Below, one piece after another: positions 58,205 through 64,000 of a DNA stretch of 64,000 bases (its first letter is position 1; each line of letters starts with the position of its first letter). A program made the translations under genes and the position numbers. The stretch is taken from NCBI GenBank assembly GCA_964625505.1, contig CAZVBW010000001.1, positions 8,542-72,541 on the forward strand, in the 5' to 3' direction. The stretch comes from an uncultured Phycisphaeraceae bacterium (GTDB taxonomy: Bacteria; Planctomycetota; Phycisphaerae; Phycisphaerales; Phycisphaeraceae). The notes under the pieces are model-generated. The model did not search any database, was not told the origin of the DNA, and worked only from the letters and a program-made list of their open reading frames with translations.

Positions 58205-60250
58205 ATGGACCCGGCGATCTGGCGCGCGAACCTGGCGGCACTGCGACGGCGGCACCCGCTGGCGGCCGATGCCGTCGAGGCGGCAGAGCCCGCGTGCCTG
58301 CAGTGGGCCCAGGGGCGGGACGGGGCGGCGGTGGCGAGCATCGACCACGACGGCCGGCCGCTCGCGATGTGCAGCAAGTACGCCCCGCTCGACGAAGCCA
58401 GGGCCCTGATCGACCCGGTGGACCTGGACAAGGCGGCGTGCGTCGCCGTGCTGGGTTGCGGGGTGGGGCACCACGTCGCGGCGCTGGCCGATCGACTGAG
58501 CCGAAAGGCGGTGCTGGTGGTCTACGAGCCGGACGCCGGGCTGCTGCGGGCCGTGCTGGAGCGGGTGGACCACAGCGGCTGGCTGGGGGCGGACCACGTG
58601 GTGCTCATGGTCGGCGAAGAGGTCGACCGCGGGCAGCTGATCCGGCTGATCGAGCCGCGGGCGATGGTCGTGACCCAAGGCACACAGCTGGTCTCGCACC
58701 CGCCGACGCGTCGTCGGCATGCGGCCCAGCTCAAGGCCTTCGCCGACGAGCTGACCGCGGGCATCGACTACTGCCGGATGTCGATCGCGACGGTGCTGGT
58801 CAACGGCGTGCGGACCTGCCACAACCTCGCGATGAACCTGCCGCACTACACGGCCGGCGAGACGGTCAACGACCTCTACCAGGCCGCCGCCGGTCGGCCG
58901 GCCGTGCTTGTCGGGGCCGGGCCGTCGCTGGTGAAGAACGTCGACCTGCTGACCGACCCGGCGGTGCGGAACAACGTGGTGCTCATCACGGTGCAGACGT
59001 GCCTCAAGCCGCTGCTGGACCGCGGCATCCGCCCGGACTTCGTGACCGCGCTGGACTACTCAGCGATCTGCACGCGGTTTTACGAAGGGCTGCCGGACCT
59101 GCCCGACGTGACGCTCGTCGCCGAGCCCAAGGCCAACCCCGCCATCCTCGACGCGTTCCCCGGGCCGATCCGCATCTGCCGCAGCGAGTTCAACGACCAT
59201 GTGCTGGGCAACCCCGCCGACGGCGGGCTGAGCCGGCCGATGCGGCACGTCCCCGCCGGGGCGACCGTGGCCCACCTGTCCTTCTACGTGGCCCAGCTGC
59301 TGGGCTGCGACCCGATCATCATGATCGGCCAGGACCTGGGCTTTTCCGACGGCCTGTACTACGCCCCGGGCACGCCGGTGCACCAGGTCTGGTCCAGCGA
59401 GCTGGGCGCCTTCAACACCATCGAGATGATGGAGTGGACCCGCATCGTGCGGATGCGTGGCCACCTGTCCCGGCACGAGGACGTCCACGGCCGGCCGATC
59501 TTCAGCGACCAGCAGATGATCGCGTACCTGCGGCAGTTCGAGCGCGATTTCGCCGCCGCCCCGCAGACCGTTATCGACGCCACCCAGGGCGGGATGCCCA
59601 AGCTGCACACCACGCGGATGACCCTCGCCGAGGCGCTCGCCGAGCACGCGACCCAGCCCGTGCCGCCACTTCCGCAGGCCCAGCGAAACGTGGACGCCGA
59701 CCGACTGACGCGGCTGGGCCCGCTGCTGGATCGGCGGGTGGAGCAGGTGCAGCAGCTGGGCCGGACTACCCGGGCCTCGGTCCGCCTGCTCGAGCAGATG
59801 CAGGTCGCTCACGGCAAGGCAGACCAGTCCCGGCTCGCTTCGTTGTTCGCCAAGCTCAAGAAGCACCAGGCCCGGGTACACGGCGAACTGGGCGACGCCT
59901 TTGCCATCGTCAGCCTGATCAACAGCACCGGCGGGTTCGAACGCAATCGGCAGGACCGCCTGATCGACACCCACAGCGCCGACGGCCGCGACCGTGAAGC
60001 CCGGCAGATGCAGCGCGACCTGGCCAACCTCAAGTCGCTGCTGAGCGGTGTGGACGAGGCGGTCCGGATCCTCCGCGATGCGCGGGGGCGGGTGGCTGAT
60101 GTCTCGGCCTCCCCTCCCTCTCAGGGAGGGGCCGGGGGAGGGTCGAGCCGTCCCGCCGCCGATACGCCCGCGGCCCGTCCGCTGCGACCCTCACCCCAGC
60201 CCTCTCCCTGCAAGGGAGAGGGGGCCAAGCCGCTGAAGGAGGCCGCGTGA
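58205..60250 (+). CDS. DUF115 / motility-accessory-factor (Maf)-like putative nonulosonic-acid glycosyltransferase
   Basis: The central block is PAVLVGAGPSLVKNVDLL...VLITVQTCLKPLLDRGIRPDFVTALDY...GATVAHLSFYVAQLLGCDPIIMIGQDLGF. It matches the MptE-like/DUF115 core of Maf proteins (from memory). The C-terminal tail is repeat-derived. Confidence 0.65.
   Translation: MDPAIWRANLAALRRRHPLAADAVEAAEPACLQWAQGRDGAAVASIDHDGRPLAMCSKYAPLDEARALIDPVDLDKAACVAVLGCGVGHHVAALADRLSRKAVLVVYEPDAGLLRAVLERVDHSGWLGADHVVLMVGEEVDRGQLIRLIEPRAMVVTQGTQLVSHPPTRRRHAAQLKAFADELTAGIDYCRMSIATVLVNGVRTCHNLAMNLPHYTAGETVNDLYQAAAGRPAVLVGAGPSLVKNVDLLTDPAVRNNVVLITVQTCLKPLLDRGIRPDFVTALDYSAICTRFYEGLPDLPDVTLVAEPKANPAILDAFPGPIRICRSEFNDHVLGNPADGGLSRPMRHVPAGATVAHLSFYVAQLLGCDPIIMIGQDLGFSDGLYYAPGTPVHQVWSSELGAFNTIEMMEWTRIVRMRGHLSRHEDVHGRPIFSDQQMIAYLRQFERDFAAAPQTVIDATQGGMPKLHTTRMTLAEALAEHATQPVPPLPQAQRNVDADRLTRLGPLLDRRVEQVQQLGRTTRASVRLLEQMQVAHGKADQSRLASLFAKLKKHQARVHGELGDAFAIVSLINSTGGFERNRQDRLIDTHSADGRDREARQMQRDLANLKSLLSGVDEAVRILRDARGRVADVSASPPSQGGAGGGSSRPAADTPAARPLRPSPQPSPCKGEGAKPLKEAA
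60107..60225. repeat. Two family-C hairpin elements (opposite orientations) forming the 3' end of the Maf-like gene
   Basis: The first is CCCCTCCC-tctca-GGGAGGGG followed by CCGGGGGAGGGT (60111-60143). The second is ACCCTCACCCCAG followed by CCCTCTCCC-tgcaa-GGGAGAGGG (60187-60222). Confidence 0.8.
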
Positions 60251-61977
60251 CCCGCCGACGCATCGTGGCCCTGGTGGACGCCGACCCGCACCGCGGGCGG
60301 CTGGGGCACGCGCGGTCGCTCGGGGCGCGGCTGGGCCACACGACCGTGCTGGGCCAGACGCTGCATCGCATCGGGGCGGTCCCGGCGGTGACGGATGTGG
60401 TCGTGGTGCACCCGGCGGACGCGGCGCTGGAGATACCAGACGCTTCGCCGACTTCGTCGACTCAGCGTCGGCTTCCTATTGCCACTCATGCCGCATCCGT
60501 GCCGCACGACGACGGGGCCCGCCGACGCATCGTCGCTGCGCGTCAATGGGCCCACACCGCGTGGCGTGGCGGGCTGGGTCAGGCGACCGCTTGGGATGAA
60601 CTGTTGCCGGCCGACCCGTTCGCCGATGCGTTGGCGGCTAATGCTTCGGATGCCGATGTCGTACTGCTGCTGGGCGGCGACTGGTGCCTGGTCGATCCGG
60701 ACCTGACCGCATCGCTGATCGAGCGGTTTGAGCAGTCGCCCGAGGCGTTCAAGCTGGTCTTCGCGCAGGCCCCGCCGGGGCTGTCGCCGGTGCTGTTGCA
60801 GCCGGGGGTGCTGCGGGACCTGGCCGAGCACCGCGCGACGCTGGGCCGGGTGCTGGGCTACAACCCGAGCCAGCCGAGCCTGGACCCGATCGGCAAGGAC
60901 GTGTGTGTTGCGGTGCCGGCCCACGTCCGCGACCTGGGACGACGTCTGATCCACGACACGCCCCGGGCCATCGCACACCTCCGCGCCATCGCCGAGCACC
61001 TGGGCCCCGCCCTGCCGACCGCCGACGCCGACGCGATCGCCGACGCCTCCCGCGCTGTCGAGCTGACCTCCGACGCCTGGCGGACCCGCCGACTGCCCCC
61101 ACAGTGGTTCATCGAACTCACCCCGCACCGTGACGCCGCCGGGCCGATCACCCCGCAGCACCACGTGCAACCCGACCGCGGGCCGCTGGACGTGGCGCTG
61201 GCCCGCGACCTGTTCGCCGAGCTGGCCGAGGTCGGCGACGTGGCCGTGATGCTCGGCGGCATCGGCGAGCCGCTGCGGCACCCGCGCTGGACCGACATCG
61301 TCACCGCCGCCGCCGACGCCGGCATTGCCGCCATCGGGCTGACCACCGACCTGCTGGCCGACCGCGAGACCATCGCCCCGCTGATGGACCTGCCGCTGGA
61401 CGTGCTGCAGGTCCGCCTGAACGCCGACCGGCCCGACACCTACGCCCAGGTGATGGGTGTCGACCCGGCGAAGTGGGACCACGTGATGGGCCAGCTGCAG
61501 TGGCTGATCGACCAGCGGCTCAAGCGTGACGGTTCGCTGCGGGCTGGGCTGCCGTGGCTGGTGCCGACGCTGGTCAAGACAGCCGGCACGCTGCGGGACA
61601 TGGAGTCGTTTTTCGAGCGTTGGCTGCGCCTGGGCGAACACCCCGTGATCGAGCGTTTCGACACGGGCCTGGGCCGCGTGAACGATCTGTCGCCGGTCCC
61701 GATGGACCCGCCGCCGCGGGCCGCAAATCCGCATGCGGTACCGACCTGTGCCTATGTCCTGGCCGATGGCAGTGTTACCCTGTGCCTTGGAGACTGGCTG
61801 GGCGAGCGATCGCTGGGCCAGGCGGAGCAAGCCGGCGATCTGCTGAAGCATTGGCAGTCGCTGGCTCGTCCCGAGACGCGTCGGCGGCAGCGGGCCCTGG
61901 GGCTCACCGCCGGCTGCGAAGACTGGCTGCGGGGATGGGACACGCGGGCGGCCACCGCCCCACCGCGTGCGGCATGA
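60247..61977 (+). CDS. Fusion protein: SpsF/cytidylyltransferase-like N-terminal domain plus a radical-SAM/SPASM-like C-terminal domain lacking the CxxxCxxC motif
   Basis: The GTG start overlaps the Maf-like stop (GTGA). The N-terminus reads RRIVALVDADP...VVLLLGGDWCLVDPDL. The C-terminus reads WFIELTPHRDAAGPITPQ where a CX3CX2C would sit, followed by GGIGEPLRHPRW, GLTTDLL, LQVRLNADRPDTYAQVMG and ...CAYVLADGSVTLC. Confidence 0.55.
   Translation: MTRRRIVALVDADPHRGRLGHARSLGARLGHTTVLGQTLHRIGAVPAVTDVVVVHPADAALEIPDASPTSSTQRRLPIATHAASVPHDDGARRRIVAARQWAHTAWRGGLGQATAWDELLPADPFADALAANASDADVVLLLGGDWCLVDPDLTASLIERFEQSPEAFKLVFAQAPPGLSPVLLQPGVLRDLAEHRATLGRVLGYNPSQPSLDPIGKDVCVAVPAHVRDLGRRLIHDTPRAIAHLRAIAEHLGPALPTADADAIADASRAVELTSDAWRTRRLPPQWFIELTPHRDAAGPITPQHHVQPDRGPLDVALARDLFAELAEVGDVAVMLGGIGEPLRHPRWTDIVTAAADAGIAAIGLTTDLLADRETIAPLMDLPLDVLQVRLNADRPDTYAQVMGVDPAKWDHVMGQLQWLIDQRLKRDGSLRAGLPWLVPTLVKTAGTLRDMESFFERWLRLGEHPVIERFDTGLGRVNDLSPVPMDPPPRAANPHAVPTCAYVLADGSVTLCLGDWLGERSLGQAEQAGDLLKHWQSLARPETRRRQRALGLTAGCEDWLRGWDTRAATAPPRAA
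60433..60476. repeat. Family-B element inside the SpsF-like domain coding region
   Basis: ATACCAGACGCTTCGCCGACTTCGTCGACTCAGCGTCGGCTTCC encodes IPDASPTSSTQRRLP in frame. Confidence 0.75.
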
Positions 61978-61999
61978 GCACCAGCAGGAGGAACTGACG

Positions 62000-62755
62000 A
62001 TGAGCATCAAAACCCTGGGCGTCGTTCTCGCCCGAGCCGGCAGCAAGGGCCTGCCTGAAAAGAACTCCCGCCCCGTCGCCGGCAAGCCCATGCTCAGCTG
62101 GACGATCGAGCACGCCCTGGCCAGCCCGGCGCTGGACCGCGTGGTCTTGTCGACCGACGGCCAGGAACTGGCTCAGATCGGCCGCAAGCACAAGATCGAG
62201 GTGGTCCACCGCCCCTACGAACTGGCTCACGACACCGCCCCGGTCGACGCCGCCGCCCGCCACGCGGTGACTTCCATCATCGGGATGCACGAGCAGGTCG
62301 TGATCCTCTACGCCAATGTCCCGGTCCGCCCGGCCGACTTGGTCCAGCGGGCCGTCGACAAGCTCCAAGCCACCGGCTGCGACTCGGTCCAGTCCGTGTG
62401 CCCGGTCGGCAAGCACCACCCCTACTGGATGCAGCAGGTCCTGCCCGAACCGGGCGTCCGCGACCCCTCCGCCCACGCCGCCGGCCACGGCAGGCTCGAG
62501 CCGTTCCACGCCAATCAGGTCGACCGCCGGCAAGACCTGCCGCCGCTGTACGTCCTGGACGGCGGGATCATCGCCGTCCGCCGCGACAGCCTCTTTCACG
62601 TGGTCGAGGGCCAGCCGCACGCCTTCCTCGGCGACGACCGCCGGGCCATCATCACCCAGCCCGGCGAGGTCATCGACGTGGACAGCCCGCTGGAACTGCA
62701 CGTCGCCGAGGCCGTCCTCAACGAACAGCAAAACGCCGCCCGCGGCATCGCCTGA
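62000..62755 (+). CDS. Acylneuraminate (CMP-nonulosonic acid) cytidylyltransferase family protein
   Basis: An AGGAGG RBS precedes the start. The sequence is MSIKTLGVVLARAGSKGLPEKNSRPVAGKPMLSWTIEHAL...VLSTDG.... Confidence 0.8.
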   Translation: MSIKTLGVVLARAGSKGLPEKNSRPVAGKPMLSWTIEHALASPALDRVVLSTDGQELAQIGRKHKIEVVHRPYELAHDTAPVDAAARHAVTSIIGMHEQVVILYANVPVRPADLVQRAVDKLQATGCDSVQSVCPVGKHHPYWMQQVLPEPGVRDPSAHAAGHGRLEPFHANQVDRRQDLPPLYVLDGGIIAVRRDSLFHVVEGQPHAFLGDDRRAIITQPGEVIDVDSPLELHVAEAVLNEQQNAARGIA

Positions 62756-62766
62756 CGCCCCCCAAA

Positions 62767-62847
62767 GCCCACCCCTTCAGGGGTGGGCGGGTACCTGATG
62801 CCCCGAAGACGACGCCGATCCGCCTCAGGCGGAGAAGCGTCTGGTAT
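62767..62847. repeat. Family-D-like hairpin (62767-62788) plus a family-B element (62803-62847, reverse) filling the intergenic gap
   Basis: The hairpin is GCCCACCCC-ttca-GGGGTGGGC. The reverse complement of 62803-62847 is ATACCAGACGCTTCTCCGCCTGAGGCGGATCGGCGTCGTCTTCGG. Confidence 0.8.
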
Positions 62848-62857
62848 CCCTGTCCTC

Positions 62858-63988
62858 ATGCCCATCCCCCGCCGCATCGCCGTCGTCACCGGCACCCGCG
62901 CCGAGGCCGGCCTGCTGCGGCCGGTAATGCACGCCATCGCCGACCACCCGGACCTGCAGCTGCAGCTGGTCGTCGCCGGGATGCACCTGGTCCACTACAC
63001 GCACCGCGACCTGCCCTTCACCCCCGCCGCCGATGTCCCCATGCAGCACCCGGGCCACACCGGCCGGCTCGCCGACGCCCGGGCCCTGGGCCGCGGCATC
63101 GCCGGCTTCGCTGACGCCTTCGACACGCTGGACCCCGACGCGGTGCTCGTCCTGGGTGATCGCATCGAGGCCTTCGCCGCTGCCAGTGCCGCCAGCATCG
63201 CGGGCCACCTGCTGGTTCACATGCACGGCGGAGACCGCGCCCAGGGCGTCGCCGACGAGGCCATGCGCCACGCCATCACCAAGCTCGCCCACCTGCACCT
63301 ACCCGCGACCGCCCAGAGCCGACGCCGCATCCTCCGCATGGGCGAACCGGCCGACCGCGTCCACCGCGTCGGCTCACCCGCGGTCGACGGCCTGGGCGAG
63401 GTCCGCCCCGCCGACGACGCCCCCGCCTGCATCGTGATGCAACACCCCGTCGGCGACCCGCCCGACCTCGAACGCCAACGGATGCATGCCATCCTCAAAG
63501 CCACCGACCGCTTCACCCATACCGCATCCGCTTCTGCTGCCGGGGGCGGGGGCGGGGTCTGGGGCGGGGGTCGCCTGGTCATGGCCCCCAACGCCGACCC
63601 CGGCCGCGAAGGCATCACCCAAGCCATCACCGACCACGGCATCACCCCCGTCAACCACCTGCCCCGCGACCGTTGGCTCGCCACACTCAGGGCCGCCCGC
63701 GTCCTGGTCGGCAACAGCTCCGCCGGCCTCATCGAAGCGGCCGTGCTCAAAACCGCCACCGTCAACATCGGCCGCCGCCAGGCCGGCCGCGAAACCCCCG
63801 CCAACGTCATCAACCTCGCCAGCACTGCCACCCACGACATCACCGCCGCCCTCGACCACGCCCTCACCCTCAACCTCACCCGCCTCCGCCACCCCTACGG
63901 CCGCGGCGACACCGGCCCCCAAACCGCCCACCTCCTCGCCACCCTCAACCTCCAATCCCTCCCCCGCACCAAGCAAAACAGCTACTAG
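62858..63988 (+). CDS. UDP-N-acetylglucosamine 2-epimerase (hydrolysing, NeuC/LegG-like)
   Basis: RIAVVTGTRAEAGLLRPV, VLGDRIEAFAAA, HMHGGDRAQGVADEAMRHAITKLAHLH, VGNSSAGLIEA and NIGRRQAGR follow the NeuC pattern (from memory). There is a Gly-rich insert. Confidence 0.75.
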   Translation: MPIPRRIAVVTGTRAEAGLLRPVMHAIADHPDLQLQLVVAGMHLVHYTHRDLPFTPAADVPMQHPGHTGRLADARALGRGIAGFADAFDTLDPDAVLVLGDRIEAFAAASAASIAGHLLVHMHGGDRAQGVADEAMRHAITKLAHLHLPATAQSRRRILRMGEPADRVHRVGSPAVDGLGEVRPADDAPACIVMQHPVGDPPDLERQRMHAILKATDRFTHTASASAAGGGGGVWGGGRLVMAPNADPGREGITQAITDHGITPVNHLPRDRWLATLRAARVLVGNSSAGLIEAAVLKTATVNIGRRQAGRETPANVINLASTATHDITAALDHALTLNLTRLRHPYGRGDTGPQTAHLLATLNLQSLPRTKQNSY

Positions 63989-64000
63989 CAAGGGCGAAGG

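Follow-up and report, generated by a model that had tools for sequence, protein, structure and literature searches.

Maf enzymes are the main bacterial route by which sialic-acid-like sugars are put onto flagella. How they choose their donor and acceptor is poorly understood, and GlfM, to our knowledge the only known Maf helper, was recognised only recently. The characterised members of the family, i.e. those from Magnetospirillum magneticum (5mu5 in the PDB), Aeromonas caviae (Maf1), Campylobacter jejuni, Clostridium botulinum and Geobacillus kaustophilus, share a three-domain fold and come from flagellated hosts, in which genes for the biosynthesis of a cytidine monophosphate (CMP)-nonulosonate are encoded alongside. 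Here we describe a related system from an uncultured bacterium of the family Phycisphaeraceae, encoded by four genes (g1 to g4) at positions 58205-63988 of a DNA stretch of 64,000 nucleotides (the window, C1:8542-72541, where C1 is a contig of an assembly of 4.17 Mb in 182 contigs). This part of the window is a complete operon, conserved across Phycisphaerae, that most likely serves to activate a nonulosonate and to attach it to an acceptor. The operon probably supplies a CMP-nonulosonate, from which a Maf-family transferase (g1), together with a helper protein (g2), attaches the sugar to flagellin by O-glycosylation. While the sugar chemistry of the operon is ordinary, the obligate partner of Maf is undescribed in the literature that was searched. 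The genes are as follows:

58205..60250, + strand: g1, Maf-family (MptE-like/DUF115) nonulosonic-acid protein glycosyltransferase, 681 amino acids (aa), conserved core at residues ~30-630
60247..61977, + strand: g2, obligate Maf partner, 576 aa, a cytidylyltransferase-like/radical-SAM-like fusion with a degenerate cytidylyltransferase fold (residues ~1-280), a cysteine-less radical-SAM barrel (~285-470) and a SPASM/twitch remnant (~485-570)
61967..62755, + strand: g3, CMP-nonulosonate synthetase (NeuA/LegF type), 262 aa
62783..63988, + strand: g4, hydrolysing nucleotide-sugar 2-epimerase (NeuC/LegG type), 401 aa from GTG 62783, or 376 aa from ATG 62858

The four open reading frames (ORFs) lie on the same strand, are tightly packed and exhibit coding-type codon bias (G+C content of 0.86-0.92 at third codon positions, GC3, and of 0.41-0.53 at second positions, GC2). 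The initial annotation of the stretch had presented them as a nonulosonic-acid/Maf-type glycosylation cluster of four tightly packed, co-directional genes. The genes are real, and the nature of the cluster is supported alike by profile hidden Markov models (HMMs), by the fold of g1, which matches 5mu5 over its full length, by the conservation of the catalytic acids and by strong synteny in Phycisphaerae. The names given there to the DUF115/Maf-like, NeuA-like and NeuC-like proteins are backed by HMM scores above cut-off (PF01973, PF02348 and TIGR03568), and the description of the second gene as an SpsF-like/radical-SAM-like fusion is supported by Foldseek and hhalign. The remark that such a system has not been characterised in planctomycetes also stands, as no publication on a Maf-type system was found there, nor was any found that combined Phycisphaerae, flagellin and glycosylation.

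The Maf-family transferase

The central region of g1 (residues 207-382) confidently matches the MptE-like/DUF115 family (PF01973, 116.7 bits, cut-off 34.6), while the protein remains under the cut-off of the N-terminal Maf domain of Pfam (PF20157, Maf_flag10_N: 17.2 bits, cut-off 23.5) and far under that of the PseD model of NCBIfam (NF050051: 49 bits, cut-off 670). A comparison of the profile of g1 orthologues (A2, 33 sequences) with the PDB identified the Maf protein 5mu5 (E-value 2.2e-9), with both the N-terminal (GLGLGY region) and the central domains aligned. The AlphaFold2 (AF2) model of g1 has a mean predicted local distance difference test score (pLDDT) of 88.7, and 5mu5 is its sole significant fold match in the PDB (E-value 2.3e-17, 721 columns, template-modelling score 0.44-0.47), with only 16% sequence identity in the fold alignment. 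Two acidic residues of the M. magneticum enzyme, E324 and D415, are reported to be critical (bioRxiv 10.1101/2020.06.03.131540); their counterparts in g1 are D284 and D377, neither of which varies in the alignment of 33 orthologues. Judged by sequence and model, g1 belongs to the Maf family as a divergent representative, with the three-domain fold, the MptE-like central domain with its GxGPS motif and both critical acidic residues retained. As in the described systems, the genes for CMP-nonulosonate biosynthesis are encoded alongside and the host is flagellated. The Maf genes of Phycisphaerae differ from the characterised ones in having no linkage to flagellar genes and in being always paired with, or fused to, a gene for a g2 protein; a protein of this kind is absent from every characterised Maf system.

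Conservation of the Maf/g2 pair and its fusions

The first search identified 118 homologues of g2, and 864 cluster representatives were retrieved with E-values of 1e-30 or lower. Synteny was analysed for the best 80 of the 212 species-representative loci that encode a g2 relative; these 80 are nearly all from metagenome-assembled genomes of Phycisphaeraceae, Phycisphaerales or Planctomycetota, plus the isolate ZRK32. In 78 of them g2 is immediately preceded by a Maf gene, and 68 have neuA downstream of g2; neuC is present in 60, and in 12 loci neuB is found between neuA and neuC. The phyletic distribution was analysed in 151 genomes of the same class. In this set g2 and Maf co-occur without exception (74/74); only a fragment of Maf was found in one additional genome, which is incomplete.

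The two proteins are also found as one chain. Maf-g2 fusions in a single ORF occur in four genomes (loci L110, L111, L112 and L113), with lengths of 1222, 1449, 1206 and 944 aa, of which the shortest is that of L112, and they account for 24 of the best 150 cluster representatives; among the long representatives that were scanned, 6 of 7 begin with an MptE-like domain and end in a radical-SAM-like part. A precedent for a Maf enzyme with a cis-encoded partner is GlfM, a four-helix-bundle specificity factor required by Maf-2 of Shewanella oneidensis (bioRxiv 10.1101/2023.12.03.569772), and the likeness extends to the interconversion of two-part and fused systems. However, GlfM is a small helical protein, whereas g2 comprises 576 aa with cytidylyltransferase and radical-SAM folds. 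The two show no mutual homology, and GlfM was rejected as a relative of g2 because the folds differ. The g2 protein would represent a second Maf helper, unrelated to GlfM, which is inherited strictly together with Maf (74 of 74 genomes) and has repeatedly become fused to it.

The partner protein, an apparently inactivated relative of radical-SAM enzymes

In Pfam, g2 has only sub-threshold matches, to NTP_transf_3 (21 bits, cut-off 27) and to Radical_SAM (SAM, S-adenosylmethionine). The best-scoring named family is TIGR04321 ('spiro-SPASM'), for which no publication was found; the match is weak (54.4 bits, cut-off 250) but nearly full-length (model positions 78-483 of 510). The AF2 model of g2 is of high confidence (pLDDT 90.8, predicted template-modelling score 0.91), and Foldseek identified a different fold for each of its two halves. 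For the C-terminal half the matches are radical-SAM enzymes, i.e. DesII, SkfB, SuiB, BtrN and MoaA (E-values 1e-9 to 1e-5), with a partial TIM-barrel followed by a SPASM/twitch extension; for the N-terminal half they are the Leptospira cytidylyltransferase 6oew and IspD. The relationship of the N-terminal domain to cytidylyltransferases was also indicated by hhalign, which aligned it to a NeuA-like profile with a probability of 90.5%. The possibility that this domain is a recent duplicate of g3 was rejected (BLASTP E-value 0.037).

Neither half retains the signature of its catalytic relatives. The CxxxCxxC motif is absent from g2 and, at the position of the radical-SAM core, is missing in all 118 close homologues, and the loop that would bind the cluster is replaced by a conserved ELTPxRxxxGPITPQH segment. 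At most four cysteines (three to four in most members) remain in the C-terminal region of the family, which does not match the seven-cysteine SPASM motif for two auxiliary clusters; the g2 of the source genome has three cysteines in the SPASM region, and two of the four conserved ones are replaced by P495 and T554. In the N-terminal domain, D, R and L stand where the NeuA signature has R23, S26 and K27, and the position that corresponds to K32 is variable. Both halves of g2 look like inactivated enzyme folds, as far as sequence and model can tell.

Only two relatives, P0196 and P0199, exhibit a canonical CxxxCxxC motif at exactly the homologous position; they score much higher than g2 with the TIGR04321 model (199-209 bits, compared to 54). 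Because of these relatives g2 appears to be a cluster-less offshoot of the uncharacterised spiro-SPASM family, i.e. a distant relative rather than a member: it lacks CxxxCxxC as well as most of the SPASM cysteines. A similar fate has befallen the haloarchaeal pseudo-SAM/SPASM family TIGR04347, which also keeps the radical-SAM/SPASM scaffold after loss of the cysteines for the SAM cluster; however, its similarity to g2 is weak (E-value 0.0034), and its domain partners and genomic context differ. The g2 family clearly exemplifies how a radical-SAM enzyme can become a module without a cluster, with relatives that still bear the cysteines persisting beside it.

Flagellin as the probable acceptor

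The initial annotation had left the acceptor of the sugar open; the evidence points to flagellin. Among the 151 genomes of the class, flagellin was detected in 73 of the 74 that have g2, compared to 42 of the 77 that do not (Fisher p = 1e-11). In two families, f3 and f8, some members lack both the Maf/g2 pair and flagellin, and this pattern suggests that the two were lost jointly.

A flagellar context was found for the cysteine-bearing relative P0196, which is encoded on a metagenome contig of 53 kb and 60% GC (JGI 3300017991; block L114 1-17635). The order of genes in this block is flagellin (fliC), flaG, fliD, fliS, a TP0873_N-like gene, Maf, the radical-SAM homologue, neuA, neuB and neuC, followed by genes for a methyltransferase, a FemAB-like acetyltransferase, a PseB-like dehydratase and a DegT aminotransferase; the block also holds a nitroreductase gene. 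Going by gene content, the block is a candidate for the set of proteins with which the active radical-SAM ancestor works. Its flagellin is 40% identical to the flagellin of our source genome over the central domain. The source genome itself encodes at least three flagellins, one Maf and one NeuB; the two flagellins that are complete have ~490-500 aa, and serine and threonine make up 15-25% of their central domains.

A class-wide scan of flagellin frames gave lengths of ~480-580 aa in genomes with the Maf/g2 pair and of mostly ~275-430 aa in the flagellated families without it (f5, f6, f14 and f15).

The CMP-nonulosonate pathway and the type of sugar

The product of g3 passes the cytidylyltransferase model PF02348 (68 bits, cut-off 22.6), scores under the cut-off of the PseF model TIGR03584 (88 bits, cut-off 205.7) and has the CMP-Neu5Ac (N-acetylneuraminic acid) synthetase of N. 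meningitidis as its closest match in the PDB (1eyr, E-value 3.4e-22). In contrast to g2, it keeps the ARxGSKGxxxKN signature, with R23, S26, G28 and K32 invariant in 22 orthologues. The product of g4 passes the NeuC_NnaA equivalog model TIGR03568 (274.3 bits, cut-off 235.9), aligned from residue 30, while the model of the non-hydrolysing WecB enzymes gives only 60 bits; its closest structures are LegG (5xvs, E-value 1.5e-43) and human GNE (4zht, E-value 7.8e-36).

The remaining step is accounted for by a gene outside of the operon. A whole-genome scan with PF03102 identified no NeuB synthase on the operon contig C1 and a single NeuB/LegI-type synthase at C26:22909-24150 (locus L006 10910-12151), which comprises NeuB and SAF domains; a second match, on C59, turned out to be a 3-deoxy-D-arabino-heptulosonate 7-phosphate (DAHP) synthase and was rejected. 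By homology, the genome encodes the complete set of NeuC/LegG, NeuB/LegI and NeuA/LegF proteins, as do the sialic acid (NeuC-NeuB-NeuA) and legionaminic acid (LegB-C-H-G-I-F) pathways, from which it differs in having the synthase unlinked. The initial annotation had expected the synthase past base 64000, where ~9 kb with eight ORFs contain neither a synthase nor an aminotransferase gene. It had also proposed that the lack of a synthase nearby would speak against the cluster. None is indeed encoded nearby, but this yardstick is too strict, given that NeuB is present in all 74 genomes with g2 and that in 33 of them (counted by hand) it lies inside the operon, within ~3 kb of g2 and between neuA and neuC.

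The neuB gene on C26 is solitary, with an integrase-like gene just upstream. In comparison with its orthologues the protein has an in-frame insert of 22 aa (DGRGGGEIPDASSPSASQRRLP) between conserved blocks, the DNA of the insert holds a palindrome, and the 3' end of the ORF enters a run of undetermined bases (N). Eight genomes of the source genome's family were sampled, the source included, and neuB is unlinked in every one. Since the seven others each keep all of the genes, the split arrangement is old and maintained.

Which sugar is made? The pathway for pseudaminic acid uses PseG, and because the pathway encoded here has a NeuC-type epimerase instead, we infer that the sugar is of the Neu or Leg type and not pseudaminic acid. 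Within this range, the sugar of the source genome is about as likely to be Neu5Ac as legionaminic acid. Scores against the PDB and NCBIfam are uninformative for this choice, with g4 being about equally similar to LegG and to human GNE and with NeuB scoring under the cut-off of the generic NeuB_NnaB model. The content of the operon favours Neu5Ac across the class, as far as gene complement is a guide: precursor-modifying genes are lacking, i.e. none of the 80 related loci has a dehydratase, aminotransferase or acetyltransferase gene inside the operon, as a legionaminic acid pathway would have, and none has a gene for a DegT-family aminotransferase within 10 kb.

The source genome does possess a cluster that could make a diacetamido-trideoxyhexose, either as a precursor of legionaminic acid or for a lipid-linked glycan. 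The products of this cluster (C58:6015-14221, locus L028) are, in the order of the genes, a HAD phosphatase, a LegC-family aminotransferase (539 bits, cut-off 420), a PglD-like acetyltransferase/ATP-grasp fusion of 582 aa, a PglF-like Polysacc_synt_2 dehydratase, a short PglC-like phosphoglycosyltransferase, a nucleoside diphosphate (NDP)-sugar dehydrogenase and a TviC-like epimerase. LegC was rejected as the key to the sugar of the operon: a LegC-family gene scores above cut-off in just 5 of the 74 operon-bearing genomes, the source genome among them, and never lies within 10 kb of the operon.

Proposed mechanism and alternative explanations

A plausible course of events can be outlined. The data show which families and folds the gene products have, that motifs are lost, that g2 and Maf strictly co-occur and are in part fused, and that one relative has a flagellar gene context; flagellin as acceptor, g2 as a helper and the identity of the sugar are what we infer. 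g4 would hydrolyse and 2-epimerise a nucleotide-linked N-acetylhexosamine to yield a manno-configured hexosamine, which the lone NeuB/LegI-type synthase, acting in trans from C26, would condense with phosphoenolpyruvate (PEP), and g3 would convert the product to the CMP-sugar. The Maf protein g1 would then move the sugar to its acceptor, most probably to serine or threonine residues in the central domain of the ~500-aa flagellins; transfer to flagellin is a property of the characterised Maf enzymes and a prediction for g1. g2 would be the obligate partner of Maf, probably without catalytic activity of its own, and would bind or position either the CMP-sugar or the acceptor; it appears to descend from a radical-SAM/SPASM enzyme that was joined to a cytidylyltransferase fold and later lost both catalytic signatures. 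More speculatively, the pair might be a flagellin glycosyltransferase of two subunits, or of a single chain in some lineages, in which Maf relies on a doubly dead pseudoenzyme recruited from a sugar-tailoring radical-SAM ancestor, with CMP-Neu5Ac as the native donor because the conserved operon holds only NeuC, NeuB and NeuA; this would be the first natural case of Ser/Thr-O-linked sialylation of flagellin, a tentative idea that we consider more doubtful than not.

Several points weigh against glycosylation of flagellin by Maf with a non-catalytic helper, and they can be considered together with the alternatives to which they lend support. The phyletic co-occurrence is inflated by shared ancestry. 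No flagellar genes were found within 10 kb of the operon, either in the source genome or in the 80 Phycisphaerae loci, and one genome (G109; L112 6352-9183), the single exception to the association with flagellin, has a shortened Maf-g2 fusion of 944 aa together with NeuB and LegC, while flagellin was not detected; here an alternative acceptor is possible. Perhaps the same sugar pathway and the same Maf/g2 pair serve another acceptor throughout, either a different surface protein (a DUF1559 protein resembling type IV pilins, or a glycoprotein of the S-layer or cell wall) or a glycan linked to lipid or polysaccharide? The neighbourhood of the operon is compatible with this idea, in that a GT9 heptosyltransferase is encoded 1.7 kb upstream and many N-methyl/DUF1559 proteins downstream. 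However, the upstream phosphoesterase and GT9 genes and the downstream HD gene are absent from related loci or only occasional in them, flagellin accompanies the operon in all genomes but one, the operon and flagellin seem to have disappeared together within f3 and f8, the homologous module of P0196 sits inside a flagellar filament operon, and the characterised Maf enzymes all act on flagellin according to published work. We therefore regard a different acceptor as unlikely.

Or could g2 be a working enzyme after all, i.e. a second nucleotidyltransferase, or a tailoring enzyme without radical chemistry, that modifies the CMP-sugar or the transferred sugar and travels with Maf owing to the specificity of Maf for the modified donor? 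The family has ~20 invariant and ~40 near-invariant positions in 32 diverse sequences, clustered in both domains, and it keeps G-G-x-G-E/D where radical-SAM enzymes have their 'GGE' motif and T-D-L where they have 'TNG', so that non-radical catalysis may occur. Moreover, the cysteine-bearing and presumably active relatives are encoded amid tailoring genes (methyltransferase, acetyltransferase, dehydratase, aminotransferase), and the three to four C-terminal cysteines of most family members could hold one auxiliary cluster. On the other hand, the three cysteines of the radical-SAM cluster are all missing in each of the 118 close homologues, the source copy lacks two of the four conserved C-terminal cysteines, the residues of the CTP-binding signature of NeuA (CTP, cytidine triphosphate) are replaced, and the recurrent fusion to Maf, and not to NeuA, NeuB or NeuC, suits a subunit better than an enzyme of the pathway; a catalytic g2 thus seems rather improbable to us. 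The integrity of NeuB is not certain, given the 22-aa insert and the run of N at the 3' end, and together with the unlinked position of neuB beside an integrase-like gene and the non-conserved tail of g1 this could be taken to mean that the operon is a remnant of a pathway that no longer functions in the source genome, with NeuB displaced and interrupted. Such decay is very improbable: the four ORFs are intact with strong coding GC3, the insert in NeuB is in frame and lies between conserved blocks, and neuB is unlinked in seven other genomes of the family, yet all the genes are kept there.

Flagellin glycosylated by Maf with the help of g2 is the explanation that we favour, and it would extend nonulosonate glycosylation of flagellin to Planctomycetota and provide the orphan spiro-SPASM family with a first testable job. 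A cultured strain that bears the operon, ZRK32 (CP066225, locus L093), exists and is open to testing.

Organisation of the locus and its surroundings

Two smaller features were delineated within the operon:

60095..60250, + strand: C-terminal tail of g1 (residues ~631-681), non-conserved and predicted to be disordered, ending in the GTGA overlap with g2
62756..62857, no strand assigned: hairpin-rich spacer between g3 and g4, read from sequence, with CCCACCCCTTCAGGGGTGGG and TCCGCCTCAGGCGGA

In the tail of g1, homology to the 74 orthologues ends at about residue 630, and the pLDDT of the model falls below 50 for residues 641-681. The genes g1 and g2 overlap by 4 nucleotides and g2 and g3 by 11, whereas g3 and g4 are separated by 27 nucleotides, or by 102 if g4 starts with the ATG at 62858. 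The latter start (MPIPRRIAVVTG) is more likely, to judge from the alignment, than the GTG at 62783, because the homology to NeuC begins only at residue 30 of the longer version of g4. The two hairpins fill the neuA-neuC spacer, and the GTG start would put both of them inside the g4 ORF. A scan for promoters and terminators gave nothing exceeding chance.

The initial annotation had the cluster running off the end of the window. Instead, the cluster is complete inside it, because the stop codon of g4 lies within the window (63986-63988) and the next gene, which encodes an HD-domain protein (C1:72667-73905), is convergent. The eight ORFs scanned past the window (~9 kb) encode the HD-domain protein, a PEP-CTERM protein, an AraC-type regulator, an RF-1-like protein, a CAAX protease, a protein without any match and two DUF1559 proteins, and none of them is a nonulosonate-synthesis gene. 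Right after the neuC stop codon, at C1:72530-72640, there is a long inverted repeat rich in GAAGG/CCTTC (GAAGGCAGAAGG ... CCTTCTGCCTTC), which could be a terminator or another repeat element common to the operon and the convergent HD gene.

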